DNA of 64,000 nucleotides from Methanobacteriota archaeon. GTDB lineage: Archaea > Thermoplasmatota > Thermoplasmata > SG8-5 > DAIRED01. The notes under the pieces are model-generated. The model was not told where the DNA came from and searched no databases. It saw only the letters and a program-made list of their open reading frames with translations. Every line of letters starts with the position of its first letter. Position 1 is the first letter of the stretch. Position numbers and translations under genes: made by a program. Below, piece by piece: positions 4,619 to 35,125 of this stretch. Where the stretch lies: contig JAZDNO010000014.1 in the NCBI GenBank assembly GCA_043799545.1, positions 1 to 64,000 on the forward strand. Reading direction: 5' to 3'.

Positions 4619-4642
4619 TTCGTTCCATCCGTTCGAGAAACG

Positions 4643-5383
4643 CTACTCTTCCTTGCCCCGTTTGAGAAGCTTCAGCTCGGCGTTCCCCTTGGTCTTTTCG
4701 TTCAGTTTTTCGATGAGTTCGTTCTGCATGCCAGCGGGGATTTCGATTACGCCTATCCACGTGCCGTTCGGCTGCCACTCGTCCTGCATTATCTTGCCGA
4801 GGGCCTTGAGGTCGCCGTAGGACCTGCCGTAGTCCTCGCCGGAGAGCTTGACCGCGAACCTGACCTTGTCGAAGCTTATGGGAATCAGGGGCCTCAGAGC
4901 CGCCAGCACGTCGTTGACCTGGTTCTCCGCTGGCTTGAACGGGTCTATCTTCACACGCGCCTCCTCCATAGCCGCCTCGATCCGCGCGGGCGGGTGCGGG
5001 GCTCCAGTCTGGGGGTTCATGGCGTTGCGCGCGATGATTGCGATTATCTGCTTGCGCTTGTTCTCGCCCATCTCCCTGCGCTGTTCGGTCGTGAGCTGGA
5101 CGTCACCCTCGATGGCGATTTTTCTCGCCACCGCGAGGATGTTCTCGGTGCCGAAGACCTGCTTCATCACGTCTGCGGAAGCGCGGTCGCCCTTGTGCGC
5201 GTCCTTGAATACTTCCTCGGACGGCATCTTCTCCGCGAGGTTGACTTCCTTGCCTGTCTTCAGGTCGTCTATGGCGTTCGGCTCTATGATTATCTCGAAC
5301 CTGTGCCCCGCGTGCTCGTAGCGGGCGATGACCCTGCCGTCCAGGACGCTGTCGGTATGCTCCTTGCGGATATCCTTGGACAT
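4643..5383 (-). CDS. Ribosome maturation protein SBDS/SDO1
   Basis: [46 protein letters not shown]. Confidence 0.95.
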
Positions 5384-5389
5384 CTCGCC

Positions 5390-6100: not shown

Positions 6101-6139
6101 TTTTATCCCTCTAGAACCTGGGAACGGCTCACCACTATA

Positions 6140-9127
6140 TTAAAAAATTGGTGAGCGGGGCGGTCCTTCAATGTTTTTTATTGCAGCGGCCGCGCGCCTC
6201 CAGTTTACATAGATATGGCTCAGGCAGACGGCGGTGAGCGGAACGACAAAGCCAGCCAGTATTTTCCACCCGTCGTTCGGCGATCTGTATATCGGGCCAA
6301 TGGGCTTCATGTAGTCCACTCTGACGCCGTCGATGGTCGAGAACCTCGCAAGCCGCATCTCCTCGACTTGCGTGGGCTCTAACGCTCCAGCTGCGCTCCG
6401 ATAGATGGTATTGACAATGATATATTCCCCGGGCGAATCCAAAGCTACTATTACAGGGCTTAACATATATGGATAGCCAATTTGCATTAGCTCTCCATCC
6501 ACGCCTGAGCGAAACTCGTCCACTTGCACATCGTTGCCATCGATTTCGAGCATGAACGCGCCATATTCCGGATCCCAATTCTGCCCTTCCTCGCCTATGG
6601 ACACAAATTTCCCCCGGATATCCATCCAACAGACGCGGAAACTGTCTTCGTTCGAACTATCGACGATAGCCAATATGGGGTACCATGAGTCGATATCCCC
6701 GTCGAGTTCGTTGATCATCTCCTTGGAAAGCATGGAGCCATCAGCCGTGAACGTAGCGAGGCAGATGCCAGAATCGCTAGCGTTGAATTTCCAATCGGAA
6801 TATTCCAGGTCTTCAGGAAACGGCATTGGAATGACATCATTGACCGAGAATGGGTATGCAACGTATATTTTCTCACCGACAACTGCTGTGACAGAGACAT
6901 CCATGGACGTGTAACCAATCTTGTACGGTGAGGCAGACTCCGACCAGGACGATAAAATGCTAACAACGGATTCGTTCTCGATGGGGTTGATGACGGCGAA
7001 GTGGGTGGCACTGGTCTCATCCACCGAGCCGCCAGAGTGGCTGTACCATGATAACCATGCGCGGGGATTCCCATTATGCGAAAAAGAGCCGTATTCCAAT
7101 CCGTAGACCTCCTGGTAGGAGTTGTTGTCGCCGGATGCGTTCCAAAGACGAAGGTTGCTCGTCACTCGTCCACCCGGCTCAACGAAGAAGTAATTGAGTT
7201 CGCAACTTAATACATCCCCATTTCCATCGGATTGCGCCCAAATGACGCTGTCTCCGTCCGGCCCGGGGAACACGTCGACCCCTGCACTCTCAAGAATTCC
7301 GTATGTGGTCGGCCCGGTCTCACGGACTTCGCGCCCCCTGAATACGGCGGTCGACGCTCTTGGTGCCGCCGCCAGGCGCATTTCGCCTCCCGAGCCGAGC
7401 GTTGCGTCATCGTAGACTAGGGGCCAGTCCTCCAGCCGGTACTCGTAAGTTTCATTCTCTAGGTAAAATCTGCAAATCCCGACGATGTAGAGAGAATCGC
7501 CGTCCACGAGGATTCTGTACTTGAATTCTCCCACGCCATTGGCGTGCGCGGTCGTCATTAGGTTCACCATGTCAGTGCCTAGGGATAAATCCCCACTTCT
7601 CAGGATTCTGCCATCCCCGTCGAACCGAAGGACCGACAAGCTGTCGGGGTTCGATGCTGTGCTGAAAAAGAAGAAGAACGAATCCGCAGCGTACTGGACT
7701 GAAATCGGCTGGATATTGGCCCCGCCCCTCCAAACGAGCTTCTCCAGGAGCTTTGTCCCATCGTCGTCGTACTTGCCCATCCAGAAGTCGCTCCTCTTCA
7801 TCTCCCCAGTGTAGCTGTCTTCATCGATGTCTCCGTCTACCCAGAACACCGCGATGTTGCCATCCCCGCCCCTCACCGCCCCAGCTACTAAAGGATGGTT
7901 GAGTTGTATCTTCTCGTACAGAGGGCTTGAGGAGTACGGGTCGGCCGTTACGGTGACGGAGCTGGCAAGGATGACGGCAGTCGCGAATCCGACGGCGAAA
8001 GTCATCGCCCACAGCTCCCTGAGTTTCATAGGCCGCGAAAGCTGCGTCCCGCAAAGATGTATCAATATCCCGCCCAGAGCTAAGAGGAACGTCGACGAAA
8101 GTACGCCAAAAGGCGAGACGGTGTAGCCATACAGACGTCCCCATATTGCGATGGCTTTGTACGTGCCTACAACGAGAGCGGCCGCCCCTACGAGGGCGAG
8201 CGCGGCGAGCGCGCCCCTCTTCGAGGGAGCCATGGTCCACTTCTCGGGACCGAGGTACCTTGCGGCGACGTCACCGGGGGCGCCGAACTCCGAGGCGAAC
8301 CGCTTCGCCTTCTCGGCATCGGGCGCGTCGCCGTATTCGCCGTACTTCGCGACGGCGTGCTGCCGTACCTCCTCCAACACGGCGTGCCTCGACACATGGT
8401 CGAGGGGGGAGAGCCCACTCTTGAGCTTCCTCATATAGCCTTGAAGGGTCTTGGGAGTGCCCAACGGAAACGAATGCAGCATGCTGAGCCGCCACCAAGA
8501 GAGAAGGTTGCCACCGATGAAGAAGACCATAATCCAACAGAACAACAGCATGTTGGCTAGAATCTCAAAGTCAGACACCCAATGGGTCTCCCGTCCTACG
8601 AACGTGGAGAAAGCAACGGGCACAGTGCCAAACAGAGTAAAGGATAAGATGCCTATCAATACAAGGGACGCATCCTTGAGCATCGGTATCGTCTCTGGTT
8701 TCGCCGCTTCAACGACGCATAAGGCAATTATGGATGCAGGAAGGCCGAACAGCAACAGTAGCCCCGGCAGGATCGTGGCGATTGGGTACTGCCAGAACAA
8801 ATCGTCTTGCTGGACGAGTATGGAAAAGACGGCTATTGGTATGCATGCAAGGGCCGCCTGCAACAGACGGGCCCAATAAGCTTCACGCGCATTTCTCCGC
8901 GGGTCGTCGGGCACATATCCCGCCGCGACATCCTCCGGCTCCCCCATCTCCTCAATCGCCTTATCTATCGCCACGTAGTCTACCGCGCCCCCGCCCAATT
9001 CCTTCGCTCTTTCGAGGATGTGTTCCCTAAGCTCGTCGAGGGCCTGTCCGCGCTCCTTCTTCGGCATCCCGGCCAAGCCCCTCCCCACCTTATTCAGATA
9101 GGCGTCCACGCCCTTCTTCCCCAACAT
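6140..9127 (-). CDS. Large membrane protein with two HAAS-like (DUF1700/permease-prefix) helical domains, TM bundles and a large extracellular beta-rich domain
   Basis: Two copies of Y[LM]xK[VL]xxxL...[LE]E[LV]RxH...[MF]GxPxDVAAxY, each followed by about 4 hydrophobic segments. A terminal TM helix follows. The gene lies 3 nt downstream of padR. Confidence 0.75.
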   Translation of the reverse strand: MLGKKGVDAYLNKVGRGLAGMPKKERGQALDELREHILERAKELGGGAVDYVAIDKAIEEMGEPEDVAAGYVPDDPRRNAREAYWARLLQAALACIPIAVFSILVQQDDLFWQYPIATILPGLLLLFGLPASIIALCVVEAAKPETIPMLKDASLVLIGILSFTLFGTVPVAFSTFVGRETHWVSDFEILANMLLFCWIMVFFIGGNLLSWWRLSMLHSFPLGTPKTLQGYMRKLKSGLSPLDHVSRHAVLEEVRQHAVAKYGEYGDAPDAEKAKRFASEFGAPGDVAARYLGPEKWTMAPSKRGALAALALVGAAALVVGTYKAIAIWGRLYGYTVSPFGVLSSTFLLALGGILIHLCGTQLSRPMKLRELWAMTFAVGFATAVILASSVTVTADPYSSSPLYEKIQLNHPLVAGAVRGGDGNIAVFWVDGDIDEDSYTGEMKRSDFWMGKYDDDGTKLLEKLVWRGGANIQPISVQYAADSFFFFFSTASNPDSLSVLRFDGDGRILRSGDLSLGTDMVNLMTTAHANGVGEFKYRILVDGDSLYIVGICRFYLENETYEYRLEDWPLVYDDATLGSGGEMRLAAAPRASTAVFRGREVRETGPTTYGILESAGVDVFPGPDGDSVIWAQSDGNGDVLSCELNYFFVEPGGRVTSNLRLWNASGDNNSYQEVYGLEYGSFSHNGNPRAWLSWYSHSGGSVDETSATHFAVINPIENESVVSILSSWSESASPYKIGYTSMDVSVTAVVGEKIYVAYPFSVNDVIPMPFPEDLEYSDWKFNASDSGICLATFTADGSMLSKEMINELDGDIDSWYPILAIVDSSNEDSFRVCWMDIRGKFVSIGEEGQNWDPEYGAFMLEIDGNDVQVDEFRSGVDGELMQIGYPYMLSPVIVALDSPGEYIIVNTIYRSAAGALEPTQVEEMRLARFSTIDGVRVDYMKPIGPIYRSPNDGWKILAGFVVPLTAVCLSHIYVNWRRAAAAIKNIEGPPRSPIF

Positions 9128-18320: not shown

Positions 18321-19070
18321 TTAGATTTTCTGAGATAAATCCTTACCGCACTTTGGGCAGGTGTAGTTGATGCCGTTTTGATTATACTGCGCCGTGATTT
18401 GATCCTTTTCACAAAATGGGTACTTGAATGAACGATTCGGCTGGATGATTCCAGCATCTTCCTTTGCTTGTAATAATTGGAATAAATAATTAGCCAGCGG
18501 TTTTTTATAATCCTTCATAAATAATAATCTCTTTGTGTGAAGTATACCTGAATGTTCGTACCTCCTTTCGCATAACTTCACAAAATCAAGATTGTCACTT
18601 GCTCCCGGGAAATTCGAAAAAGTAATGGCTTCCAAAGTGATGTAGACGTTTGGTAGATTTATTGCTAGATTGTACCCGAACATTCCCTTGCATTGTTTAT
18701 AATCGATAATATCGCTCCAGGGCACAGCGACATACGGTTGGGCATCCACTGCAAGTTTTTGACTTGTAGTGATATCCACTAATCCAAGTAGTGTAACCTC
18801 TTTTGCCACACGCTGTTCGTATAGGAACGTGATAAATCCCTCTGGTCGTATTACACAATAACACGCTTCCGCACCTACCGGTTCCAAATTACCAGAGTTA
18901 TAGTGATCTTCGTGATAGGATGTCTTATGTTTTTTATCTACATGCGAATTCCCTTTAATAAAAATGGCTATTGATGCTGGAAATTTAAAACCACCTTCGA
19001 TTTGACGAAGATATGGCGGCTCTACGATTGTGATTTTATTCTGAACGCTCGCAATCGGGACTTTAACCAA
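18321..19070 (-). CDS. Hypothetical AT-rich protein with possible PH-like region and C-terminal Zn ribbon
   Basis: 249-aa ORF in AT-rich DNA ending YPFC...YTCPKCGK. The start codon is uncertain. Confidence 0.65.
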   Translation of the reverse strand: MVKVPIASVQNKITIVEPPYLRQIEGGFKFPASIAIFIKGNSHVDKKHKTSYHEDHYNSGNLEPVGAEACYCVIRPEGFITFLYEQRVAKEVTLLGLVDITTSQKLAVDAQPYVAVPWSDIIDYKQCKGMFGYNLAINLPNVYITLEAITFSNFPGASDNLDFVKLCERRYEHSGILHTKRLLFMKDYKKPLANYLFQLLQAKEDAGIIQPNRSFKYPFCEKDQITAQYNQNGINYTCPKCGKDLSQKI

Positions 19071-19188: not shown

Positions 19189-21327
19189 ATGGCAGAGGAA
19201 TATTCGAAGGACCAGCTGGCGACCAGGTGGGAGGAGTTCTTCTCCGAGACTGGCTACCTGCAGCACATCAAGCGCGTCGCAGACGCGTATCCGGCGGAGC
19301 GCAGCATCTACGTCAAGTATTCCGAACTGGACCATTTCGACTCGGACTTCGCAGCCCACCTTTTCAAGCGCCCGAGGACGATGCTCGCCGCTGGGGAGCG
19401 CAAGATGCGAGAGCTCGTTCCGCCCGGGGCCGAAGGCGTCGAAATCGTGCTCAGGGTCACGGAGCTGCCCAAGGACAGGCGTGTGGAGATTAGGGACATC
19501 AGGGCGAAGCACCTAGGCAAGTTCATTGCCGTCGAGGGCCTCGTGAAACGCGCGACGGAGGTCAGACCAAAATTCACCGTTGCGGTGTTCGAGTGCCTCC
19601 GTTGCGGCAGGCACATACCGATAGAGCAGGACGAGAACCTCCTCCGCGAACCGCTGGAATGCGTCAAGGACGGAAGCATGGACCAGTTCGGCAACAGCGG
19701 CTGCGGGCGGGTGAGCGGCTCGACGTCGTTCAAGCTCGTGCCAGAGTTTTCCACGTTTATCGATTCGCAGAAGATAGATTTGCAGGAGAAGCCTGAGGAG
19801 CTGCAGGGGGGGGCGTAGCCCCAGGCCCTCACTGGCACAGCCGAGGACGACCTCACAGGCAAGCTATTTCCGGGAAACAGGGTCTTCATCAACGGCATCC
19901 TGCGCAGCAAGCAGCGGGACACGGCCAGGCAGCGCACGACGCTCATGGACATCTTCCTCGAGGTCAACAGCATCGAGCAGATGGACCCCGAGCAGCAGGA
20001 GGTGGAGATACTTCCGGAGGACCTTGAGAAGATTCATAGCCTCGCGGCGGACCCAAGCATCTACGTTAAGCTCGTCCAGTCAATCAGCCCGACGATTTAC
20101 GGCCTTCCGATTGAGAAGGAATCGCTAGCTCTCCAGCTCTTCGGGGGCGTGGAGAAGGACATGCCGGACGGCACGCACATCCGCGGCGACATACACATAC
20201 TTCTGGTAGGAGACCCGGGGGTCGCAAAATCTCAGTTGCTGAGATACATATCCAAGCTCACGCCAAGAGGGATATACGCCTCCGGGAAATCGTCGTCCAG
20301 CGCTGGCTTGACAGCTGCGGCAGTAAAGGATGATTTCGGTGAGGGGAGGTGGACGCTGGAGGCGGGCGCGCTCGTTCTGGCGGACCGCGGAGTGGCCTGC
20401 ATCGACGAGCTGGACAAGATGACGGAGCAGGACCGCAGCTCGATGCACGAGGCAATGGAGCAGGGAACGATTTCTGTCGCAAAAGCGGGCATCACCGCCA
20501 CCCTGAGAGCCAGGTGCGCATTGCTGGGTGCGGCCAACCCCAAGCTGGGGCGGTTCCAGCAGACCGAGGGTTTTGGCCTGGCGGAACAGATAAACCTCCC
20601 GCCGACGCTCCTTTCGAGGTTCGACCTGATATTCACGATGTCCGACAAGCCGGACAAGGAGCGCGACGACCAGATTGCGGACCACATCATAAAATCCCAT
20701 CTGGTTGGAGAGCGAAAGAGGAGGGTCGAGGCCGGCGATGAATACGAGCATTCGAAGGAGCTGGACGAGATGAACCGGTCGATGCTCCCCACGATAGACC
20801 CGCAGCTCCTGCGCAAGTACGTCTACCACGCGAGGACCGTCCATCCGATAATGTCCGAGGACGCGATGAAGACGATAAAGGACTACTACCTCTCGGTCAG
20901 GAGCGGCTCCGGCAAGGACATGAAGGCCGTGCCGATAACCGCCAGGCAGCTCGAGGCGTGCATCCGCCTCTCGGAGGCCAGCGCCCGCGGGCGGTTGAGC
21001 AACGAGGTCACGGCCGACGATGCTGACCGCGCCATCAAGATATTCAAGGAGTTCATGAACCGGGTCATCGGGCTCGGCGGGGGCTCTTTCGACATTGACG
21101 TCATAGCCACGGGGATGCCGCGCTCGCAGGTCGACCAGATGAACCGCCTGCTGGCAATAATCCGCGACCTGGAGCCGGGGAACCGCCACGGCGCGCCCCT
21201 GGAGGAGATAAAGCGCCAGGCGGAGGAATCGGGGATACCGGTCGATCGCGTCGAATCCCTTCTGAAGCGAGGAAGCCGCGACATGGGGATTTACTCTCCC
21301 AGGGAAGGGTTCTGGAAGACTTTCTGA
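19189..21327 (+). CDS. mcm: Replicative helicase MCM, interrupted by one in-frame TAG at 19816-19818
   Basis: N-terminal part has EVRPK, a Zn finger (CLRCG...C...C) and IDSQKIDLQEKPEE. After the TAG the same frame continues PQALTGTAEDDLTGKLFPGNRV. It then contains Walker A GDPGVAKSQ, CIDELDKM, AANP and the arginine finger LLSRFD. Total 712 codons. Confidence 0.93.
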
Positions 21328-21634: not shown

Positions 21635-22645
21635 ATGAACTGCGTCGAGTGCGGGGCGGACACGGAGCCAGGACCGCTGTGCCAGAAATGCCAGCTGGAA
21701 AAGAGGAAGCGCCCCGTGATTCCCGAGTTCGTTGACCTCACTGTCTGCGGGGGATGCGGCGCAACCCTTTCTGGAGGTACGTGGAGAGAGGTCGAACTCG
21801 AGGACGCCGCGGCGGCAGTAATCGCCACGGGGCTGGAGAAGAAGGTCGACCTCGCCGGAGTGAAGGTCGAGCTGGAGGAGGAGGCCAGCAACATCTACTT
21901 CGCCAAGGTGCTGGTCCGCAGCCGAGCCGGCGGAGCCGTTCAGCGTGACGAGCTCTCGTGCAGGCTGAGGCTTCAGGTCGGCACATGCGAAACGTGCGGA
22001 AGGCTCTCCGGCAACTACTTCGAGTGCATCATCCAGATAAGGGCGGACGGGCGCCTGCCAAGCGAGGACGAAGTGGAGGAGTGCCGCTCTTATGTGGAGA
22101 AACGGATAGACGCCGCCCGCTCCGGCGACCGCACCGTTTTCTTGAGCAAGGCCGAGGAGGTTAAGGGCGGTTTGGATATGTACCTCAGCTCCAACCAGCT
22201 CGGCCAGGGGATAGCGCGGGACTTGGCCGACAGGCGCGGGGCGCAGTACTCGGCTTCGAACGAGCTGTTCGGCCAGAAGGACGGGCGGGAGATATTCCGC
22301 ATGACTTTCCTGGTGCGCCTGCCGTCGTACTGGCAGGGTTCATTTGCAGTGCTTGGCGAGAGAATCGTGCAGGTCCACAACATCGGGCCCAAGCGCACCG
22401 CGCTGCGCTACCTGGACACGTGGGAGGATGTGAGTCTCACGAACAAGGACCTCGCGGGCACCCGGGTTCTTGGAGGAGGCGAGATGGTGCGGGAGGCGGT
22501 GGTGCTAGCCGAGACGGAAACGGAGGTCCAGCTCCTCGACCCCGACACGAACAAGGTCGTGGACGTGGTGAAGCCGCGCGGGTGGAGGCTCCAAGGGGAG
22601 GCGGCGAAGTTCGTGAGGCACGACGAGGGTTTCTATCTGGTATAA
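21635..22645 (+). CDS. NMD3-related ribosome export/maturation protein
   Basis: CVECG...LCQKC...CGGCG...TCETCGRLSGNYFECIIQIRA, LFGQKDGREIFRMTFLVRLP. Confidence 0.9.
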   Translation: MNCVECGADTEPGPLCQKCQLEKRKRPVIPEFVDLTVCGGCGATLSGGTWREVELEDAAAAVIATGLEKKVDLAGVKVELEEEASNIYFAKVLVRSRAGGAVQRDELSCRLRLQVGTCETCGRLSGNYFECIIQIRADGRLPSEDEVEECRSYVEKRIDAARSGDRTVFLSKAEEVKGGLDMYLSSNQLGQGIARDLADRRGAQYSASNELFGQKDGREIFRMTFLVRLPSYWQGSFAVLGERIVQVHNIGPKRTALRYLDTWEDVSLTNKDLAGTRVLGGGEMVREAVVLAETETEVQLLDPDTNKVVDVVKPRGWRLQGEAAKFVRHDEGFYLV

Positions 22646-22707
22646 AGTCTCAAAGTTTATTATCATCACGCAAATAATTTTATATTTGATACCTTATCCG
22701 AACTAAC

Positions 22708-25347
22708 ATGAAGATTAAGAAAATTCGTATTCAGAATTTCCGTTCAATCATAGATACTGGTGATGTCAACATTGAAGGTCAAATAACGACAATTTTAGGT
22801 AAAAATGAGCAGGGAAAAACAAATTTTTTAAGAGCAATAGAGTCATTTCGGAACGATTATTCATATACTGAAGAAGATTTGTGTTACCTAACAACCCATA
22901 GCGATGATAATGAAAAAATACCGATAGTAACGATATTTATTGAGCCGAATGTCGATCTGAAAAAATTACTGCAAAAATATGGAGACACAAAAGGGCAGCC
23001 AAATATTTATGGTATTACTAAATATTACGATAACCATTATACATTCGAACCAGATTCATTAAAACACATAGTCGAATTAATAAAAATAGAGGATAAACCT
23101 GAACCTGAAACATTAATTGGTAAAATATTGACTGCAGATGAGATTGAGAAAAACATTGAGTGGTTGGTGAGCCTTCAGAATGTTGATGGTGGTTTTTGTT
23201 TAATGCCAGGGCAACAATCACAATTACTTCAGACCTATGAAGTAGTTCAATCATTAATTGAACTCGGTGGTTTGAGTAGAATTCATAAACCTAAACTTAT
23301 AAAATATATAATTAATACTCAATCCGGCACTGGTGGATTTGGTAGTGCGCCAAACCAACCATCGCAAATTAGCACGACTTATTATGCGATTAGTTTGTTA
23401 AAAATGTTAAATGAGTTAAGCAGAGTTAATAAAACAAAACACATTAATTGGATTATTGAAAATAAAACACCAGATAATGGTTATTCAAACCAACCAAAGC
23501 AACCATCGAACTTAAATTCAACATATCAAGCAATTGCGTCTTTAAAACAACTTAATGCGATTAATAGAGTGAATAAAACGGAGATATTAACTTATATAAA
23601 ATCAACCCAACACGCAAATGGCGGTTTTAGTCCTATAAAAGGGCAACCACCACAAATGGAATTTACTTATGCAGGCATCAGAATATATAAAATGATGATG
23701 GCAATAAATAATGTCGACGTCGATATTCAAATAAATTGGATAAAGGAATTGCAGACTCCTGACGGTGGCTTCGGCAATACCCCGAATTCGCCTTCAACGA
23801 TAGGGAGCACGTTTCAAGCGATTTCAACTATACATGAATTAAATGGCGATTTATCGCTAAAATATAATAGTCTTGAAAAATATATATTGTCATTAAAAAG
23901 TGAAGATGGAGGATTCAGTTCAATTTTAAATCAACCAGTTAATGCCGAGTCGACATTTTTTGGAGTACATTTGGTAAAAGCGTATGGTAAACATACGGGT
24001 ATTTCTGATATAATGCATACTATCTTGAATAATCTCCCACCGATTATCTATTTTTCCGATATCAACCTATTAAATGATAAAATTGATATTAACGAGTATC
24101 TAGAAAACAGTGTAGAGAATTCGACTTTTACGAATTTATTTAATCTTTCAAATTTGAATTTAGAATATTTACAATCAATCGAAGATCCTCACAATCGAAA
24201 GCGGTTATTTCGGTCAGCGTCAACAACAATTACTGGGTTAGTAAACGATTCATGGAAACAAGAAAAAGTCAATGTTAATTTAGATATTGATGGTGATGAA
24301 ATATTAATTTACATAGAAGATGACGCTGGTGCTAAGGCAGATCCACCTAGTAGGAGAAGTGACGGATTCAGATGGTTCTTATCGTTTTATATAAATTTTA
24401 TCGCTGGAACAAAGGGCGAATTAAAGAACGCTATTTTATTACTTGATAACCTGGGTTGGGTGCTTCATCCTTCTGGTCAAAGCGATTTACTAACAACGCT
24501 AGAGAAGATATCTCTGAATAATCAAGTAGTCATAGCTACCCATTCACCATTTCTAATCAATAAAGATAAATTAGAGCAAATCCGGATTGTTGAGCGTAGA
24601 AAGAATGATGGTACAAAAATATTTGACAAATACTGGCACTCAATTTACGACTCTTTAGCAATTATTAGAGGTTCCATTGGTGCAGATATTGCCCATTCAT
24701 TGTTTGGTTGTAAGAATAATGTAGTAATGGAAGGATATTCAGATGTGCTATATCTTGAAGCTATTTTAGAATATAACGAAAAAAAGGATCCGAAAGATAA
24801 ATTTAAAGAATCAATATTTTTAATAGGTGCCGGTGGCGCTGATAAAATTCCAATATTCTTGACCTTACTTAAAGCAGAAAAGTACAAATGTATTGGTATA
24901 GTTGACAATGACACCGAAGGTAATAAGGTTGTATCAGAAATAAAGCATTCGAATACAGAAATTGATGTGGACAAAGATATTTTAAAATTGAATGAAATTG
25001 ATGAGCAAAGAAAAGGAATTAGCTGTGCAATTGAGGATTTGATAGATGAAAAGCTATTTTTAGATATAGTAAATAAAGCTTATGATGAATTGTTTATAGC
25101 AAAGAATATTCACCCATTGAATCAAGGAGATATTAACACTGATGGATTACTAGTAAAAAAATATATAAAAGTTTTTGAGAAGAAAAACATTGGTGCATTT
25201 GATAAAATATTGGTAGCTAAAAAATTTAAAGAATTAATTTTAAACGATCAAATATCGGAAAAAGATTTAAAAGGTACAATAACGCGTTTTAATTCATTAA
25301 TTAAAGTTCTAAAAATCAAGTATAAAAAACTTGGAGTCGATTTGTAG
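22708..25347 (+). CDS. OLD-family ABC-ATPase + TOPRIM nuclease with an inserted prenyltransferase-like alpha/alpha repeat domain
   Basis: IQNFRSI, Walker A GKNEQGKT, signature SDGFRW, Walker B variant LLLDNLG-LHP and H-loop ATHSPF. TOPRIM motifs MEGYSD, GAGG and IVDND. Six 48-aa repeats lie between Walker A and the signature. Confidence 0.88.
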   Translation: MKIKKIRIQNFRSIIDTGDVNIEGQITTILGKNEQGKTNFLRAIESFRNDYSYTEEDLCYLTTHSDDNEKIPIVTIFIEPNVDLKKLLQKYGDTKGQPNIYGITKYYDNHYTFEPDSLKHIVELIKIEDKPEPETLIGKILTADEIEKNIEWLVSLQNVDGGFCLMPGQQSQLLQTYEVVQSLIELGGLSRIHKPKLIKYIINTQSGTGGFGSAPNQPSQISTTYYAISLLKMLNELSRVNKTKHINWIIENKTPDNGYSNQPKQPSNLNSTYQAIASLKQLNAINRVNKTEILTYIKSTQHANGGFSPIKGQPPQMEFTYAGIRIYKMMMAINNVDVDIQINWIKELQTPDGGFGNTPNSPSTIGSTFQAISTIHELNGDLSLKYNSLEKYILSLKSEDGGFSSILNQPVNAESTFFGVHLVKAYGKHTGISDIMHTILNNLPPIIYFSDINLLNDKIDINEYLENSVENSTFTNLFNLSNLNLEYLQSIEDPHNRKRLFRSASTTITGLVNDSWKQEKVNVNLDIDGDEILIYIEDDAGAKADPPSRRSDGFRWFLSFYINFIAGTKGELKNAILLLDNLGWVLHPSGQSDLLTTLEKISLNNQVVIATHSPFLINKDKLEQIRIVERRKNDGTKIFDKYWHSIYDSLAIIRGSIGADIAHSLFGCKNNVVMEGYSDVLYLEAILEYNEKKDPKDKFKESIFLIGAGGADKIPIFLTLLKAEKYKCIGIVDNDTEGNKVVSEIKHSNTEIDVDKDILKLNEIDEQRKGISCAIEDLIDEKLFLDIVNKAYDELFIAKNIHPLNQGDINTDGLLVKKYIKVFEKKNIGAFDKILVAKKFKELILNDQISEKDLKGTITRFNSLIKVLKIKYKKLGVDL
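23143..23990 (+). repeat. Six tandem 48-aa prenyltransferase/squalene-cyclase (PFTB-like) repeats inside the OLD gene
   Basis: WLVSLQNVDGGF, YIINTQSGTGGF, WIIENKTPDNGY, YIKSTQHANGGF, WIKELQTPDGGF and YILSLKSEDGGF start at 23161, 23305, 23449, 23593, 23737 and 23881 (exact 144-nt period). Confidence 0.92.
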
Positions 25348-25348
25348 T

Positions 25349-26455
25349 CTACCCTTTCCTCGTCACCAGCGTCAGCACGTCCTGGTCCATCAGCACGTGG
25401 TTCAGCCCGACCGTCTGCCCCGGGAACTTCGAGCTGGGGCCCCAGACGTTGGCGTAGCGGAACTTGCGCTTGAAGTCGCGGTGCAGCGTGTCGCATATCA
25501 TCCCGACTGTCGAGCCTTCCTTCACAACCAGGGGGTCTTTCATGTCCGCGTCCCTGCCCTGCGGCTTCATGTAGATGCTCATGAACTTGAGCCTCTGGAA
25601 CAATTCTTCCTTGAGCTCCTCGAGGCCGATGTCCTTGTCCGCGGAGATGGGAATCACATGCCACTTGGACAAGCGCTTCTCCAGGTGGTCCAGATACTCG
25701 GCGCCCACGAGGTCGACCTTGTTGATGGCGACCAGCGCCGGCAGGTATATCCTGTTCCCCGCCAGATAATCTATCAGCTCCTCCTCGCTTATGTCCTGGC
25801 GGAATACGACGTCGGCGCTCACGAGGTTGAACTCGTTGAGGATGGCTTTGGCTCCGTCCTCGTCGAGCTTCGTCAGCTTCACCGTGCTGTTGACGGTTAT
25901 CCCGCCACGGTCCTTCTTGGCGATGGCAATGTCCGGTGGCCTGGTGTTCAACCGTACGCCGACCTGATATAGCTCCTCCACGAGGACGTCGATGTTCGTC
26001 TCGAAGACGTCCCCCATGAGCAGGACCATGTCCAGCGAGCGCACGACAGACAAAACTTCCCGTCCCCGGCCCTTGCCCTTCGACGCGCCTTTGATGAGCC
26101 CTGGCAAGTCCAATATCTGTATCTTCGCCCCCCGGTACTCCATGAGCCCCGGCACCACGGTCAGGGTCGTGAACTGGTAAGCGGCGACCTCGCTCTTCGC
26201 GTCCGTGATGTGGTTCAAGAGGGTGCTCTTGCCCACGCTCGGAAAGCCGACGAGTCCGATGGAGGCGTTGCCCGTCTTCTTCACTCCGTAGGAGAGCCCA
26301 GTGGAGCCACCGCTGGTCTTCCGCTTTTCGGCCAGGTCCTTCAGGCGCGAAATCTTTGCCTTAAGGAGGCCGAGGTGGTGGGAAGTTGCCTTGTTCTTCT
26401 GCGTGTTGAGGATTTCCTCCTCAATCGCCTTTATCTGCTCCTCGGGAGTCGGCAT
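25349..26455 (-). CDS. DRG/OBG-family GTPase with TGS domain
   Basis: MPTPEEQIKAIEEE, KNKATSHHLG, GFPSVGKST, YQFTTLT, DLPGLI, NKVD. True start at 26455. Confidence 0.96.
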   Translation of the reverse strand: MPTPEEQIKAIEEEILNTQKNKATSHHLGLLKAKISRLKDLAEKRKTSGGSTGLSYGVKKTGNASIGLVGFPSVGKSTLLNHITDAKSEVAAYQFTTLTVVPGLMEYRGAKIQILDLPGLIKGASKGKGRGREVLSVVRSLDMVLLMGDVFETNIDVLVEELYQVGVRLNTRPPDIAIAKKDRGGITVNSTVKLTKLDEDGAKAILNEFNLVSADVVFRQDISEEELIDYLAGNRIYLPALVAINKVDLVGAEYLDHLEKRLSKWHVIPISADKDIGLEELKEELFQRLKFMSIYMKPQGRDADMKDPLVVKEGSTVGMICDTLHRDFKRKFRYANVWGPSSKFPGQTVGLNHVLMDQDVLTLVTRKG

Positions 26456-26558
26456 CCAAGCGCCCTTAGACGGTCGGTACGTTATCAATTTTGCTGTCCC
26501 CCGAGCGGCGTCACCTTTATTTATCGCATCCACATGCCATCGTTGCCAGGCGTCTGAA

Positions 26559-27848
26559 ATGCCGTTCACCAAAGTGATAAAGGACAGTCTCGCGGAGAGC
26601 CACGTCATAGCTGACATGCGAGACTCGCTGAGGCACTTCAGGAACCAGCAAGCCGATGCCAAACAGCTCATACTGGCCTCCCTCATTTCGGGCTTCGGGA
26701 GCGTGCTGTCGGGTTTCATCCTCGTCCTTTACGTGAATCAGTTCGCAGGGGGAACAGTGGCCTTCGGCTCGATAATGCTCGTGAGCGGCGTTGCCAACAT
26801 AATGGTGCTGATGTTCAGCGGGCTGCTGGGCGACTGGGTGGGGCACAAGCCGGTGCTGCTTCTCGCGGGCGTCCTGGCGATTTGCGGGACCGCCCTCTAC
26901 GCATCGTTCACCTCTCTTCAGATTTTCTTCGCCGCGGCCGCGCTGGGCGGAGCGAGCGGCGGCCTGGCGGGTCCGGCGACGAATGCGCTCCTGGCCGAGA
27001 AGAGCTCCACGAGCGAATCGAAGTACGTCTTCAGCTATGCATCGTTCGTCGGAACGCTGGCGGGGGCGGCCGGGAACCTGATAGGGGGCATGATTCCCAT
27101 GATATTCAGCAGGTTCATGGACTTCGGGCCGGTGCGGAACTATCAGATGGTGTTCTACTTCGCCGTCGTCTTCCAGGCAATCGGATGGCTATTGCTCCTG
27201 CGCGTCCCCGAGGAACCGCACTGCCACGTGGCCAGGGCCGTGACGAGCGGGGAGCGGAAGAGCGCGTGGCGTTGGATAGCGATGTTCGCTTTGCCGCAGG
27301 CCGTGATTGGATTCGGCGCCGGGTTCGTGATACCCTATTTTCAGGTTTTCTTCGAGCTGCGGTTCGGAGTGTCTGTCGAGGTGATAGCCGTGGCTTTCAT
27401 GTTCAATTCGCTGGTGATGGCCGCAGCGCTCCTGCTCATCCCCAAGGCCGCCGAGCGCCTGGGCAGCATGCACGCCACCATGGCCACGCAAATAGGGGCG
27501 ATTGTGCTCCTCGTAATCATCCCCTTCGTTCCGCCCCCTCACTACTGGCTATGCGTCGTCCTGTTCATCGCCAGGATGGTGCTGATGAACGTGTCCGGTC
27601 CGATAATCACGGCCTACATGATGCAGAAGGTCCCGACGCACGCGCGCGGCACAGCCACGAGCATGACGATGATAGCCTGGATTTCATCCAATTCCCTCGG
27701 GATGTTCTTCGGAGGCTTCATGTGGAACGGCGCCAGCGCTGGGTACGTCCCCCAGTTCATCATCTGCACATCCCTTTACATAGCGGCGACGTGCCTCTAC
27801 GCCAGCTTCTTCCTGAAGGCGGATGACAAGGCGCCGGCTGCCAGTTAA
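26559..27848 (+). CDS. MFS transporter
   Basis: About 12 TM segments, motif A-like GLLGDWVGHK and PKAAERLG. The start was set after the DRG gene. Confidence 0.9.
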   Translation: MPFTKVIKDSLAESHVIADMRDSLRHFRNQQADAKQLILASLISGFGSVLSGFILVLYVNQFAGGTVAFGSIMLVSGVANIMVLMFSGLLGDWVGHKPVLLLAGVLAICGTALYASFTSLQIFFAAAALGGASGGLAGPATNALLAEKSSTSESKYVFSYASFVGTLAGAAGNLIGGMIPMIFSRFMDFGPVRNYQMVFYFAVVFQAIGWLLLLRVPEEPHCHVARAVTSGERKSAWRWIAMFALPQAVIGFGAGFVIPYFQVFFELRFGVSVEVIAVAFMFNSLVMAAALLLIPKAAERLGSMHATMATQIGAIVLLVIIPFVPPPHYWLCVVLFIARMVLMNVSGPIITAYMMQKVPTHARGTATSMTMIAWISSNSLGMFFGGFMWNGASAGYVPQFIICTSLYIAATCLYASFFLKADDKAPAAS

Positions 27849-30007: not shown

Positions 30008-33000
30008 GTGGTGTGGGCGATGAAGAAATTTGCATCCGGTTGGTTGTGCGTAGTTGTTATCCTGAGCTCATCGTGGGTGGCACTGGATTTGGGGTTAAAG
30101 GTTAAAGCTGATGGATACGGTGACTATCCGCCGCCATTGGCAGGGGATTGGCATATCAACACCGATACCTACGTCGGTAATGAAACAATCATTCTAGACG
30201 GCAATCTTTGGGTTGAATCTGGCTCGACATTGACATTTTACAATGCGAACCTGAGAATGGACAATACGTTCAACGGCGAGCACAACATCCTTGTGAATGG
30301 TACTTTCAATATAAACAATTCGATGATAACGAGCCATGATGGCGTCAACAGATATCTATTTGAATTTCAGGGTTTCAGCGATGGATTGTTTGAAAAAGCC
30401 AACATCAGCTACTGCGGATACGACAACGACCACCGAGGATTCACGGTGTCCGTACCAGACCTTGTCGTGAAGAATTCTACTTTTGACAGGGGATACTTCG
30501 GTGTGACACTTCAAACTGATGGTCCGGAATTCTATAACGTGTCCATCACCAATACGGAAGGCAACGGCATGGTATTTTACGGCCCGAACAGCGTTTTCCA
30601 GGATTCTATCATACGCAATTGCACCAACGTGGGCCTGCAAATAGGCTTTAGCGATGCCACAATCACGAACGTCACGATCGAGGATTGCTGGCTTAGCAAC
30701 GTCGCCGCTGCTAGCGGCAATGTGTTGTTGGTCAATTCGACATTGAGCAATGCCACTCTGTACTCGGTGCTCCTATCGACCGGTGCCCACCTCACATACT
30801 TGAACACTACAGATACAAATAACGGATATTACTTTGACGCTGGAACCAGCATGACAAAGAAATGGTTCCTGAACGCCAAGGTGGTGAACGAATCCGGAAA
30901 TCCAGTCGTGGGAGCCACGGTACGTGTCAGGGACAACGAAAACGGGACTTACGATGCCAACTTCACAACGGATGCAACAGGTTGGGCGAGATGGATCGTG
31001 GTCAACGAGTCCTGGGAGAACGAGACAAACGCAATCATCTACACACCACATCAGATTTCGGTTTCCAATGCCACACTGTCTAAAGAGTCCATCCCCATGC
31101 AGATCATGAACCGCAGCAAAAATTTGGTAATCGATTTGGATTCTGCCCTCACTATCCATCTTCCTATCCGTATAAACTCGGACGCGGACTTCGATGCGGC
31201 GCATGGCGTCGTCAACGAGGCGACTGGCGACGGCTCAGCTGGAAACCCGTGGATCATCGAGAACTACGACATCAACGGCACTGGATACGGATACTGCATA
31301 TATGTCGGGAACACCACTGATTATTTCGTCGTGAGAAATTGCAATTTGCACGAGTCGGGTGGAGTATCATCTTGGCCATATTATACTGGATCTGGTATCT
31401 TGGTAAATAACATACGAAATGGTGTATTATTTAACAACACATTGGCCGATAATAATAATGGCATTCATATATTCGGTTCAAATACCAATCTGATTCAAAA
31501 TAATGGAATCAATGATAACCACAATGGAATTAATGTGGAATTTTCTGCAGGTAATAGCATTCGAGACAATGTGGTTGAGAACAACGATTATGGTATCATA
31601 TTATACCATTCTACCTACAATACTTTGGCTAATAATTCGATGATTAAGGATGGAATATTCATTCGAAGCGGTGATATCGAACATTGGAACACACATAACA
31701 TCGATAACACAAATACCGTGGATGGCCGCCCAGTTTATTATCTTAAAAATGTAACGTCGGGGAGCATACCGTCCGATGCCGGGCAAGTCATATTGGCCAA
31801 CTGTTCCGGCATCAGTGTAAGCAATCTCAGTCTCCAATATGCCGACGCTGGGATTATGATTGGCTATTCAGATAACATCACAGTAAGAAATAACATAATT
31901 GTCGGCATCAATTGGTATTGTGACGACAGCGGAATCTTAATGGATAATACTGAGAATGTTAGCGTGGTCAACAACACGATATCTATGTATTCCTATGGAA
32001 TAACTCTTGATAGTTCAGAGTATAACGCACTAGATAGAAACACAATTATCAGTTGCATGGATGGCATTGTTATCCGAGAGGGATATAATCACAATATTTC
32101 GAACAACTCATTATTGTCTTGTTATCAAGGCATTTTCACATATCCTGGCTGCCGATCAAACATGATCTTTTCAAATCAAATTACAAGTAATGGATATGGA
32201 ATACGGATATGGCAGGGTAACAATAACTCCATTGCGAATAATGATTTTGACCAAAATAACTATGGAATATACCTATCATTTTCATGGGATATCTGGGCGG
32301 GCAGCAACAATACGATATATCATAACAACTTCATCAGCAGCTTTACATATCACGCAGTAGATTCTACATACAACGATTGGAACTTGTCCTACCCGATTGG
32401 CGGTAACTATTGGAGCGATTATACTGGCGTCGATTTAAATGACACACCAGCGCAGAATGTTCCCCCACCAGACGGCATCGGCGACACGCCGTACACGAGC
32501 ATCGACAGCACGACTGGAGCCCAAGATAACTACCCGCTGATGCATCCAATAGGTTATCCGATTGTCATTTCCACTCTGCCACCATCGGGAGGAATCAACA
32601 TTTCAACCGGAATGTCAGTCACCGTTATTTTCAGCCAGAGCCTGAACACTTCGGTGACGCCGGTATTGACGCAAACGGCCGGCAGCCCCGTCACCTACGC
32701 CTTCCAGGGTTGGAGCCAGACAAACGTCGCCAACGACACGGCCACGTGGACGCATGGCAATTGGGCGCAGAACAACCTGGTTACAATCGTGGTTTCGAAT
32801 TTCATGGATTTGAGCGGCGGCGCTGGGTTCAATCACGCATTTTCATTCAGGACCGCCGACACCATCAGCCCCGTCTCCAGCGTCAACACAATCGCTGGCT
32901 ACTGGAAAACGACGTCTCCCATGACAATCGGGGCGTCGGCGAGCGACGGAACCGGCAGCGGCGTTGCCTATGTGGAACTATGGAGCCGGGCATCGAGCGA

Positions 33001-35125
33001 CAATGCCACCTGGAGCGCTTGGACGAAGGTGGGAAACGATACGGCGTCCCCGTGGTCGTTCAGCACCAGCATTGCCAGCGGGACGTACCATCAGTTCTAC
33101 TCGAGGGCCGGCGACGTCTCAGGCAATTACGAGGCCGCGCCGGGTTCCAGGGACGCCCTTTGCGGGTACGACGCCACGGCCCCAATGACAGCAGTAAATG
33201 CGATTACCCCTTCGACTGCCGCTACCATGAGCCTTTCCATCACTTATTCGAGGAGCGACTCAGCCAGCGGGGTAAAGAACGTCACCTTGTGGTACTCTTA
33301 CTCGGCGAGCGGTACAGCGTACGGCGCCTGGCAAAAGTTCGGCACTGAGAGCGTTTCCCCGGCATTCGCGGCATTTGACTTCAACTTCCCCAGCGGCGGC
33401 GGCTATTACCAGTTCGCAACCAGGGGGACGGATTTCGTGGGCAATTGGGAGAGCGCCCCTTCGGGCAACGACACCTGGGTGTTGAAACTCACTTCGGACA
33501 CGACGGCGCCATCGTCGTCGGCCACAGCCTTCGCGCCCTACTGGAAAAATGCCTCCCCGACCGCGATATCAGCGACGGCGAGCGACGCGGGCAGCGGCAT
33601 TGCCAACGTGACGCTCTGGTACAGGCACAGCGCCACTAACTCAACATGGACCACGTGGGCGCCGTACGGCATGGACACTGCAGCTCCATGGGAGTGGAGT
33701 TTCGACTTCTCCTACAACCAAGGATATTACCAGTTCTATACCGTCGCAATCGATAACTCGAGCAACGCTGAAGCCGTGCCAACAACGGCCGACGCCGTCT
33801 GCGCATACGATTCCGCGCGGCCAACGATAACAGACAGCAGTCTGGCCACCGGAACAACTGGAGATAGCTACCAGTTCCATACAGTCGTCGTCGACAACCT
33901 CAATCTATCCACGGTCCGCGTGATATACTGGTTCGGCGCGGGAAGCCAGACGAACACGACCATGGCGCGCACGACTGCCAACAATTACGAATTGTCAATC
34001 GGCGTCCCCTTGACCAGCCTTGCGACGCTCCACTACCGCATCGCGGCCGTGGACCGGGCGGGCAACTGGAACACCACATCGGTCAAGGATGTGCCAATAG
34101 CCGACAACGACGCCCCCGCCGCGAACGCTGGTGCGGACCAGACCGTCGATGCAGGTACCGCAGTCATCTTCGATGGTTCTGGCTCGACTGACAACATTGG
34201 CATCGTAAACTACACGTGGACGTTCAACGACGGGGTCGGCAACGTCGTTTTGCATGGCGTCACGCCTTCCCATAACTTCACAGGGGAAGGCAACTACTCC
34301 GTCACCCTCACCGTCAAGGACGGTGCAGGCAACAACGACACGGACACCATGGTCGTGCTGGTCAACCCTGAGGCGCTCGACGATTCGGACGGGGACGGCG
34401 TCCCGGACGACATCGATGCCTTCCCAGACGACCCGAACGAAACAGCAGACACGGACGGTGATGGCGTCGGAGACAACGGAGATGCTTTCCCGACCGATTC
34501 CAGCGAGTCAGCGGACACGGACGGTGACGGAGTTGGAGACAATTCCGACGCGTTCCCGAGCAACCCGGACGAATCCATCGACACCGACAATGACGGCATT
34601 GGTGACAACGCGGACACGGACGACGACGGCGACGGCACACTCGATACCGAGGATCCAGCCCCCCTAGATTCGACGGTCACTGGCGATGACGGCAGTGGCA
34701 ATTACTGGTGGATAATAATCATCATCGCAGTCGTAGCTGTGGCGCTTGTGATGGTCATGCTCAAGATGCGAGGCAATCGAGCGCCCGAAGAACCTGTCGT
34801 GGTAGTCTCTGCGGCGGAGCCAACGAAGGCACCAGCGCCCGAACCTATTCCGACGAAAGCATCGGCTCCAGAAATCGCTCCCGCAAAAACGCCAGAGCCT
34901 GTCCAGACCAAAGCGCCGACGCAGGCACCCCCGAAGGCTGAAGAACCCAAGGCAGCTCCACCGCCTCCGATATCATCGTCGCCGATAGCAACACCCCAGA
35001 CGCCGGCCGAGCCACCGCAATTGACCAAGGAGGAGCGCCTCGCAATGTTGAAGAAAGCCTATGACGATGGCAAGATTCCCAAGGAGGCGTACGAGAGGAC
35101 AAAAATGCGCCTAGAAAGTCTTTAA
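30008..35125 (+). CDS. 1705-aa surface protein: right-handed beta-helix/NosD regions, Ig-like repeats, PKD, TSP3-like Ca-binding repeats, TM, Pro-rich linker, SHOCT-like tail
   Basis: Signal peptide; GIxL...N.I..N repeats; GGNYWSDY...DGIGDTPY; ANAGADQTV...FDGSGSTD...NYTWTF (PKD); DSDGDGVPD repeats; TM WWIIIIIAVV; EERLAMLKKAYDDGKIPKEAYE. Confidence 0.88.
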   Translation: MVWAMKKFASGWLCVVVILSSSWVALDLGLKVKADGYGDYPPPLAGDWHINTDTYVGNETIILDGNLWVESGSTLTFYNANLRMDNTFNGEHNILVNGTFNINNSMITSHDGVNRYLFEFQGFSDGLFEKANISYCGYDNDHRGFTVSVPDLVVKNSTFDRGYFGVTLQTDGPEFYNVSITNTEGNGMVFYGPNSVFQDSIIRNCTNVGLQIGFSDATITNVTIEDCWLSNVAAASGNVLLVNSTLSNATLYSVLLSTGAHLTYLNTTDTNNGYYFDAGTSMTKKWFLNAKVVNESGNPVVGATVRVRDNENGTYDANFTTDATGWARWIVVNESWENETNAIIYTPHQISVSNATLSKESIPMQIMNRSKNLVIDLDSALTIHLPIRINSDADFDAAHGVVNEATGDGSAGNPWIIENYDINGTGYGYCIYVGNTTDYFVVRNCNLHESGGVSSWPYYTGSGILVNNIRNGVLFNNTLADNNNGIHIFGSNTNLIQNNGINDNHNGINVEFSAGNSIRDNVVENNDYGIILYHSTYNTLANNSMIKDGIFIRSGDIEHWNTHNIDNTNTVDGRPVYYLKNVTSGSIPSDAGQVILANCSGISVSNLSLQYADAGIMIGYSDNITVRNNIIVGINWYCDDSGILMDNTENVSVVNNTISMYSYGITLDSSEYNALDRNTIISCMDGIVIREGYNHNISNNSLLSCYQGIFTYPGCRSNMIFSNQITSNGYGIRIWQGNNNSIANNDFDQNNYGIYLSFSWDIWAGSNNTIYHNNFISSFTYHAVDSTYNDWNLSYPIGGNYWSDYTGVDLNDTPAQNVPPPDGIGDTPYTSIDSTTGAQDNYPLMHPIGYPIVISTLPPSGGINISTGMSVTVIFSQSLNTSVTPVLTQTAGSPVTYAFQGWSQTNVANDTATWTHGNWAQNNLVTIVVSNFMDLSGGAGFNHAFSFRTADTISPVSSVNTIAGYWKTTSPMTIGASASDGTGSGVAYVELWSRASSDNATWSAWTKVGNDTASPWSFSTSIASGTYHQFYSRAGDVSGNYEAAPGSRDALCGYDATAPMTAVNAITPSTAATMSLSITYSRSDSASGVKNVTLWYSYSASGTAYGAWQKFGTESVSPAFAAFDFNFPSGGGYYQFATRGTDFVGNWESAPSGNDTWVLKLTSDTTAPSSSATAFAPYWKNASPTAISATASDAGSGIANVTLWYRHSATNSTWTTWAPYGMDTAAPWEWSFDFSYNQGYYQFYTVAIDNSSNAEAVPTTADAVCAYDSARPTITDSSLATGTTGDSYQFHTVVVDNLNLSTVRVIYWFGAGSQTNTTMARTTANNYELSIGVPLTSLATLHYRIAAVDRAGNWNTTSVKDVPIADNDAPAANAGADQTVDAGTAVIFDGSGSTDNIGIVNYTWTFNDGVGNVVLHGVTPSHNFTGEGNYSVTLTVKDGAGNNDTDTMVVLVNPEALDDSDGDGVPDDIDAFPDDPNETADTDGDGVGDNGDAFPTDSSESADTDGDGVGDNSDAFPSNPDESIDTDNDGIGDNADTDDDGDGTLDTEDPAPLDSTVTGDDGSGNYWWIIIIIAVVAVALVMVMLKMRGNRAPEEPVVVVSAAEPTKAPAPEPIPTKASAPEIAPAKTPEPVQTKAPTQAPPKAEEPKAAPPPPISSSPIATPQTPAEPPQLTKEERLAMLKKAYDDGKIPKEAYERTKMRLESL
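32858..33810 (+). repeat. Three tandem ~105-aa Ig-like repeats (DxxxPxS...SGVxxVxLWY...YQFY...D..N.E)
   Basis: Repeats begin DTISPVSS, DATAPMTA and DTTAPSSS in the translation. Confidence 0.8.
34378..34690 (+). repeat. Thrombospondin type-3-like DxDGDG repeats
   Basis: DSDGDGVPDDIDAFP, DTDGDGVGDNGDAFP, DTDGDGVGDNSDAFP, DTDNDGIGDNAD, DDDGDGTLD. Confidence 0.85.

Follow-up and report, generated by a model that had tools for sequence, protein, structure and literature searches.

Proteins combining an OLD-type ATPase with a TOPRIM nuclease form the core of the Old, Gabija, PARIS and Septu systems and of several retron systems. In all of these, to our knowledge, the insert within the ATPase is the regulatory element, and only helical or coiled-coil inserts have been studied. 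Here we describe P0001, a protein encoded in a stretch of archaeal DNA of 64,000 nucleotides (contig JAZDNO010000014.1, positions 1 to 64,000, called the window below), whose ATPase carries an insert of a different type, composed of six PFTB repeats such as those known from prenyltransferase beta subunits. By analogy with the described OLD proteins, we consider it probable that P0001 represents an intact, recently horizontally acquired single-gene cassette coding for an ABC-ATPase/TOPRIM nuclease of the OLD family that stands alone and most likely acts against viruses or mobile elements as an effector of the abortive-infection type, in which a non-catalytic toroid of three AB double repeats replaces most of the helical insert and would serve as an assembly or regulatory module, possibly as a protein-binding sensor.

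The role of the insert has been deciphered for several members of the group. In Ts OLD it is a dimerisation domain (PMC7049728), and in P2 OLD, where it links a pair of dimers to give an autoinhibited tetramer, it acts as a 'molecular lock' whose loosening opens the TOPRIM domain for tRNA cleavage (bioRxiv 10.64898/2026.07.10.737580). In GajA, the binding of ATP stabilises the insert and the Toprim domain is kept closed, as cited in the paper on Cran1 (PMC12796447). According to that paper, Cran1 represents an archaeal OLD clade with a non-defence, cell-cycle role.

Domain architecture of P0001

The P0001 gene is a single open reading frame (ORF) of 879 codons with a mean G+C content of ca. 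0.32, and its parts are as follows.

22708..25347, + strand: OLD-family ATPase/TOPRIM gene with a toroid insert, P0001 (ORF, Pfam and PADLOC matches, G+C content)
22708..23124, + strand: ABC ATPase head, N-terminal half, aa 1-139, with Walker A at aa 31-38 (Pfam, motifs)
23125..24000, + strand: six 48-aa PFTB repeats, aa ~140-431, with alternating A (W-type) and B (Y-type) units; a predicted closed alpha6/alpha6 toroid of 12 helices with a predicted local distance difference test score (pLDDT) >90 (Pfam, AlphaFold 2 (AF2), Foldseek)
24001..24690, + strand: ATPase head, C-terminal half, aa ~432-661, with signature-like RRSDGF, Walker B LLLDN, D-loop H587 and H-loop H612; ca. 50 aa of the helical arm are gone (alignments)
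24691..25344, + strand: TOPRIM nuclease domain (E675, D679, E724, D733xD735, E776) and a C-terminal helical region, aa ~775-879 (Pfam, alignment, AF2)

The assignment made in a preliminary description of this DNA, that is, an OLD-type ATPase/TOPRIM protein with PFTB repeats at the position of the dimerisation insert, was borne out by Pfam, by PADLOC and by the alignment of motifs. The strongest Pfam match is that to Prenyltrans (8e-43), followed by AAA_15 (6e-13, aa 1-87) and AAA_21 (1e-8, aa 452-618), with the N-terminal half matched also by SMC_N and AAA_23, and OLD-like_TOPRIM (1.9e-6, aa 669-735) passes the Pfam cut-off. The best PADLOC models are Old (9e-27) and then GajA (3e-18). The same description had placed Walker A near position 22800 and six 48-aa repeats, with a period of 144 nucleotides, at 23161-23881, and all these coordinates are correct: Walker A (GKNEQGKT, aa 31-38) starts at nt 22798, and the anchors [DTN][GN]G[FY] of the repeats lie at aa 160, 208, 256, 304, 352 and 400, with a period of exactly 48 aa or 144 nt, the W/Y residue of the first repeat being encoded at nt 23161 and that of the last at nt 23881. 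No DNA-level repeat array was found in the gene by Tandem Repeats Finder; the periodicity is visible only in the protein, because the repeats are too diverged in DNA, the three AB units being 45-53% identical in nucleotide sequence versus 28% for shuffled sequences.

The closest solved relatives of the ATPase/TOPRIM chassis are Ts OLD (6p74), PtuA and GajA. The profile of the P0001 family matches Ts OLD (3.4e-14, in the C-terminal half only) and PtuA (1.7e-13), and in Foldseek the relatives found with a two-repeat homologue's model are SMC heads, 6p74, GajA and PtuA, at 1e-11 to 1e-9. Most of the motifs said to follow the repeats are in place, namely the signature-like RRSDGF (aa 549-554), the H-loop His (H612), and the Glu and DxD of TOPRIM. 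The Walker B motif is so in part: its Asp is present (ILLLD, aa 576-580), but the next residue is Asn instead of the catalytic Glu. D580 is aligned with the Walker B acid E276 of Ts OLD and the D-loop His, H587, with its H283, the spacing between the two being 7 in P0001, in Ts OLD (E276/H283) and in P2 OLD (D299/H306); D580, H587 and H612 are invariant in the family. The residue following D580 stands at the position of the catalytic Glu, aligned with the Glu of the PtuA 'DE' and with E277 of the Ts OLD 'EE'; the toroid clade has Asn here, the zero-repeat sister clade Asp, and distant relatives have Glu. This D-N pair suggests that proteins of the toroid clade bind the nucleotide and hydrolyse it slowly or not at all. 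The acidic residues of TOPRIM (E675, D679, E724, D733, D735 and E776) are invariant in an alignment of 32 family members, with E675, D733 and D735 aligned with EG..D and DED of Ts OLD.

Judged by its sequence, P0001 has what defines the core of an OLD protein, an ABC head and a TOPRIM domain in a single chain, and, being encoded by a stand-alone gene, it falls into Class 1. Similarly to the Class 1 proteins P2 Old and Ts OLD, it comprises an N-terminal ABC head, an insert that separates the ATPase halves, and TOPRIM as the C-terminal domain, and the gene stands alone. It differs from Ts OLD in that the insert is a 290-aa PFTB toroid and not a four-helix dimerisation domain, in the D-N of Walker B (E-E in Ts OLD), and in the presence of C-terminal helices after TOPRIM, seen in the AF2 model. 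In sequence the two resemble each other little. The zero-repeat relatives of P0001 retain a helical insert, and the helical arm of ca. 50 aa following the repeats, missing from P0001, is kept in every other member of the family.

An ABC head with an insert is also shared with GajA of Gabija, PtuA of Septu and retrons, and AriA of PARIS (1e-10 to 1e-9 in Foldseek; the PADLOC models of GajA and PtuA match at 1e-18 to 1e-11). In those systems the nuclease is regulated by the insert region, and none of the three proteins has a toroid insert. Unlike Gabija, Septu, PARIS and retrons, P0001 has no GajB/UvrD, PtuB, AriB or retron partner, and its nuclease is fused. As the preliminary description had it, no helicase, AriA or retron gene adjoins P0001, whose flanking genes code for NMD3 and a DRG-type GTPase. 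A GajB UvrD-like helicase gene directly downstream was found neither in the window nor in the homologous loci examined; the sole large UvrD-like gene near a homologue, in locus L015, lies upstream, on the opposite strand, and matches GajB weakly (1e-10).

The architecture is real, and we found no published description of it. A full-text literature search, the 2020 classification of ABC ATPases not included, revealed no paper linking toroids of the prenyltransferase or squalene-cyclase type with OLD, TOPRIM or ABC-ATPase defence proteins, and a look-up of terms in the Cran1 paper (PMC12796447) revealed no mention of such an insert in its survey of OLD diversity, comprising clades U1-U11. The claim that the fusion had not been described before is in agreement with these searches.

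The toroid, its repeat number and its possible roles

The AF2 model of P0001, built with the alignment of the 32 family members, has a pLDDT of 90-97 across aa 140-430 and exactly 12 helices in this region. Its toroid part aligns in Foldseek with the beta subunits of RabGGTase, GGTase-III and FTase over ca. 320 columns, with a template modelling score (TM) of 0.78-0.82 relative to the target, while the model of P0001 from ESM Atlas itself aligns with GGTase-II beta at a TM of 0.91 relative to the query (aa 140-429). Since the two independent predictors agree, these predicted models support a closed alpha6/alpha6 toroid, as had been proposed. Six PFTB repeats and a predicted closed toroid are thus common to P0001 and to prenyltransferase beta subunits (RabGGTase/FTase beta) and squalene-hopene cyclase domains (PF00432, PF13243, PF13249), at a TM of 0.8-0.9. 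P0001 differs from them in the lack of Zn ligands, DxDD and an alpha-subunit context, in the embedding of the toroid in another domain, and in the number of repeats, which is 2, 4 or 6 among close relatives.

Neither the D-x-C/His Zn site, nor DxDD, nor the thioester CxE[QN]/CxEQ is conserved in the toroids of the 12 six-repeat members, among which two isolated, non-conserved motif matches occur (one DxD[DE] and one DxC). The toroid of P0001 itself holds one non-conserved Cys, and in a profile alignment the Zn-ligand D/C of GGTase-II beta is aligned with K/T in the family. On these residues the toroid is a non-catalytic one, not an enzyme of known kinds. A thioester (TED) alpha/alpha toroid was also considered and rejected, there being no CGEQ-type motif (CxE[QN]) in any of the toroids and a TED_complement match of only 0.099. 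Outside the family, the toroid is most closely related to those of large proteins (e.g., P0077, P0124 and P0151; 29-31% identity) that have several toroids along with PKD, Ig-like or collagen domains and are probably surface or secreted proteins and not enzymes. Like the toroid of P0001, such archaeal and bacterial 'prenyltransferase/squalene oxidase repeat' proteins are non-catalytic and repeat-rich; they differ from P0001 in being multi-toroid, probably extracellular, and devoid of an ATPase or nuclease.

The number of repeats in the family is 0 (proteins of 670-687 aa), 2 (ca. 750 aa), 4 (ca. 846 aa) or 6 (ca. 940 aa), the steps always being one AB unit. In several homologues, the A units within one protein are 75-100% identical, and in the gene of P0005 (locus L017, 10001-12553) two 288-nt AB units do not differ in their first 263 nt, so that either the duplication is very recent or the copy number in the assembly is uncertain. 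In a quick maximum-likelihood tree of the chassis, the forms with 2, 4 and 6 repeats are mixed among closely related proteins, indicating a frequent change of copy number; sister pairs of 4- and 2-repeat forms have support of 99-100 in the Shimodaira-Hasegawa-like approximate likelihood ratio test (SH-aLRT), and the zero-repeat P0023 is nested among them. Some of the counts may be too low, since short-read assemblers can merge 288-nt units that are nearly identical. P0001 is an odd member of the family, with six old, diverged repeats (21-44% amino acid identity) and a long branch.

In the AF2 model of the two-repeat protein P0013, the AB unit is situated at the tip of a helical arm rising from the ATPase head. 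For three copies of this unit (aa 148-246), the prediction is a head-to-tail ring, in which each copy contacts both others and the contacts are those of neighbouring repeats in a normal toroid. The interaction prediction score from aligned errors (ipSAE) of the trimer is 0.93, versus 0.00 for the best of three controls. Of 30 proteins solved as pairs of one chain, 20 reach the mark set for this score, as does 1 of 23 solved as single chains; for the present prediction, made with three copies and an alignment of our own, these proportions are only a rough guide. The runs share at least 97% of the contacts, and the pLDDT of the partners is at least 92. The prediction shows geometric compatibility, not assembly, and the pass may reflect the likeness to, or recall of, solved single-chain toroids.

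It is possible, though we would not expect it, that the toroid is a pure assembly scaffold, which merely replaces the helical dimerisation domain and sets the oligomeric state, in cis with six repeats and in trans with fewer, the trigger (e.g., DNA ends or single-stranded DNA hairpins, as for P2 OLD) being sensed by the ATPase head. The toroid lies exactly at the position of the dimerisation domain, P0001 has lost ca. 50 aa of the remaining helical arm, and the predicted ring of the three P0013 units would fit such a function; the ring, however, speaks for compatibility only, the four-repeat members remain unexplained by closure in cis or by simple closure in trans, the repeat counts from metagenomes may be collapsed, and a rapid change of copy number is more typical of recognition modules. 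A further idea is that the toroid is a copy-number-variable (AB)n block setting the oligomeric state of an immune nuclease: three AB units would close in one chain, one AB unit would make three subunits each give a third of the ring, and the gain or loss of an AB unit would switch the assembly and hence the threshold or the specificity of the trigger. We put this forward as speculative and rather unlikely; the four-repeat forms fit neither cis nor simple trans closure. Were it true, this would be the first case of a PFTB toroid put together from several subunits, and ABC-ATPase/TOPRIM defence proteins would be regulated in a new way.

The preliminary description had regarded the barrel as a ligand or protein sensor gating the nuclease, with isoprenoid diphosphates, archaeal lipid precursors or a viral protein as examples. 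In the small-molecule version of this idea, an isoprenoid diphosphate or an archaeal lipid precursor in the cavity would gate the nuclease. The fold is indeed that of isoprenoid-binding beta subunits, and the hosts are mostly archaea, with isoprenoid lipids, but the Zn-binding and catalytic motifs are absent, the nearest relatives of the toroid are probably surface or secreted proteins rather than enzymes, the near-identical repeat units of several homologues give a quasi-symmetric cavity instead of a specialised pocket, and in close relatives with only 2 or 4 repeats a single chain cannot make up the cavity. We find such a small-molecule sensor doubtful, and in this respect the earlier proposal is not supported. 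A 'lock' role, in assembly or regulation, has at least the same likelihood as isoprenoid sensing, and an assembly/lock module or a protein-binding surface is favoured over a small-molecule pocket because of the lack of catalytic residues, the recent duplication of the units in several homologues and the existence of relatives with 2 or 4 repeats.

Homologues, genomic contexts and the P0001 cassette

A search for the architecture, suggested by the preliminary description, yielded ca. 24 clusters with the domain order of P0001 (35-47% identity) in a database clustered at 90%, all from metagenome-assembled genomes (MAGs) of Woesearchaeota, Theionarchaea, Thermoplasmata and Desulfofervidus and labelled only 'hypothetical' or 'AAA family ATPase'. 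Three more diverged toroid members (P0052, P0053 and P0056) were found in a search of 50% representatives, and further hosts among GTDB species representatives are Archaeoglobales, Methanophagales, Thermoplasmatales and WOR-3, so that the distribution is patchy and extends across archaea and bacteria. The GTDB set amounts to roughly 400 loci, toroid-bearing and toroid-less members taken together. The toroid-less chassis is far commoner (602 representatives at E <1e-30 in the 50% search). In a scan of IMG/VR, the matches in viral contigs are all distant (24-30% identity) and their lengths, by which alone the form was judged, are those of the zero-repeat form. Two toroid homologues appear disrupted, with an ORF spanning only part of the tblastn match, one in a Thermoplasmatales MAG (L028, 10001-12497) and the other in a Methanophagales MAG (L034, 6440-8963).

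The genomic context was examined at eight loci of toroid homologues (L015, L017-L022 and L028), a small sample. In L017, the genes of a type II restriction endonuclease (1.7e-65) and a methyltransferase (2.7e-150) lie directly downstream of the homologue; in L020 it is adjoined by an integrase, a NucC-like nuclease and DruE of Druantia (6.5e-95); DpnI, the UvrD-like helicase, PIN, ParE and HEPN/MNT genes are found nearby in L015, and a D5-type primase and a TPR protein in L019. A DDE transposase adjoins the homologue in L022 and an integrase in L028, where the homologue gene is broken, while L018 and L021 have housekeeping neighbours. Altogether, a defence or mobile context is present at six of the eight loci, known defence genes adjoin the homologue at four, and an integrase, transposase or primase is found at four. 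No neighbour or partner gene is conserved across the eight loci, and because of this the protein looks self-contained.

The host of P0001 is a 2.06-Mb MAG of 31 contigs with a G+C content of ca. 0.60, recognisable as archaeal by its MCM, NMD3, DRG and Rpb6. Along the whole P0001 ORF this value is 0.30-0.37, as compared with ca. 0.60 around it, and the edges are sharp within one 400-nt bin. The genes in the neighbourhood code for MCM, NMD3, a DRG-type GTPase, enolase and S2, and the cassette separates NMD3 from DRG, two convergent genes, lying between their stop codons. Its borders comprise the following elements.

22646..22650, no strand: AGTCT direct repeat, left copy, right after the NMD3 stop codon at 22643-22645 (comparison with relatives)
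22651..22707, + strand: AT-rich leader that arrived with the cassette, with a TATA-like ttttatattt at 22678-22687, ca. 25 nt before the ATG, a putative archaeal promoter (sequence)
25346..25350, no strand: AGTCT direct repeat, right copy, overlapping the stop codons of both OLD and DRG, the latter at 25349-25351 on the minus strand (comparison with relatives)

The two AGTCT copies are exactly 2700 bp apart, which is the size of the cassette, and could be a target-site duplication or a microhomology. Homology between the window and its relatives ends at 22641 and restarts at 25349. An empty site is found in a genome of the same genus (L006), with the NMD3 and DRG stop codons 4 nt apart, and, with the same 4-nt spacing, in a closer relative (L101, a 341-kb contig with flanks of 81-84% nucleotide identity). 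A search of 40 relatives did not reveal the P0001 gene. The cassette itself contains neither an integrase nor a transposase, and no terminal inverted repeats were seen by eye at its ends. The P0001 gene is a recent horizontal acquisition, in the form of a single-gene cassette.

These data also bear on the possibility that P0001 has no part in defence, being either a housekeeping or cell-cycle OLD ATPase similar to Cran1 or a selfish addiction module of a mobile element. The existence of an archaeal OLD clade with a cell-cycle role (PMC12796447) and the housekeeping neighbours in the window would agree with it. Nevertheless, it appears very improbable, since the gene is missing from the same site in two close relatives and was not found in the 40 relatives, its composition is foreign, and its distribution is patchy and crosses domains, whereas genes of the Cran1 type are vertically inherited.

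An assembly artefact, which the MAG source and the sharp G+C steps at both gene ends might bring to mind, has a negligible probability: a chimeric contig is rejected because the 4-nt spacer would have to be the site of two exact joins, the synteny with the relatives extends on both flanks as far as the stop codons, the inserted DNA comprises an entire gene together with a leader of its own, ca. 25 independent clusters show the same domain order, and the repeats are only 45-53% identical in DNA, so that an assembler cannot mis-join them. A chimeric join inside the gene, at ca. 23140 or 23990, named earlier as a possible refutation, is in practice excluded by the uniform G+C content of 0.30-0.37 and by the independent metagenomes encoding the same architecture at 36-47% identity.

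Several other features of the neighbourhood were recorded. The MCM helicase (19189-21327, + strand) is encoded in one frame with a single in-frame TAG codon (19816-19818), giving ORFs of 209 and 460 aa; MCM of L101 is intact (712 aa), and the TAG in the window could be a sequencing error, the mark of a pseudogene or a read-through codon. Just upstream of MCM lies an ORF of 249 aa (18321-19070, minus strand) with a G+C content of 0.41-0.44 and no Pfam match, maybe a second foreign gene. The longest DRG ORF (25349-26719, minus strand) has 456 aa, versus 368 aa called in L101, and its true start is probably ca. 75-88 codons downstream of the first start codon. A surface-type NosD/beta-helix/PKD protein of 1705 aa is encoded at 30008-35125 (+ strand), with a central part (31.4-32.2 kb) in which the G+C content falls to 0.36, and may be mosaic or recombined. 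In L101, a gene of another NosD/beta-helix/PKD protein (1142 aa, 3735-7163) lies between DRG and an MFS transporter and is not present in the window (26498-26505), which makes a second indel in the same neighbourhood.

Proposed mode of action and significance

By analogy with Ts OLD, P2 OLD and GajA, the toroid would be situated at the regulatory position of the OLD insert. In the mode of action that we propose for P0001, the ATP-bound heads together with the toroid-bearing insert would hold an oligomer with a closed TOPRIM site, the nucleotide being sensed rather than used as fuel, since the D-N of Walker B suggests that hydrolysis is slow or absent. An infection cue engaging or displacing the toroid, or a change of the nucleotide state, would then loosen the assembly, and TOPRIM would cleave DNA or tRNA.

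The role in defence, proposed already in the preliminary description, is suggested by the genomic context of the homologues at six of the eight loci; the locus in the window and the two remaining ones lend it no such backing, having housekeeping neighbours and not a defence island, and this weighs against our interpretation of P0001 as a defence effector. So does the fact that membership in the OLD family is in itself no proof of defence, because the role of the Cran1 clade is in the cell cycle. The ATPase could also be a degenerate one, given the Asn that replaces the catalytic Glu. Finally, the arrangement of the domains in the AF2 model is uncertain (predicted TM score of 0.43), and the N-terminal head of P0001 is poorly modelled.

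The insertion of the cassette in the host genome is clean and datable, owing to the intact empty sites in the relatives. The family adds a candidate single-gene defence system for archaea, in which, as far as we know, few such systems have been characterised. In its members the usual insert has given way to a different fold, which has a central cavity and whose number of repeats varies between close relatives, and the natural series of forms with 0, 2, 4 and 6 repeats is a useful one for learning how the insert controls the assembly of these proteins and the release of the nuclease.

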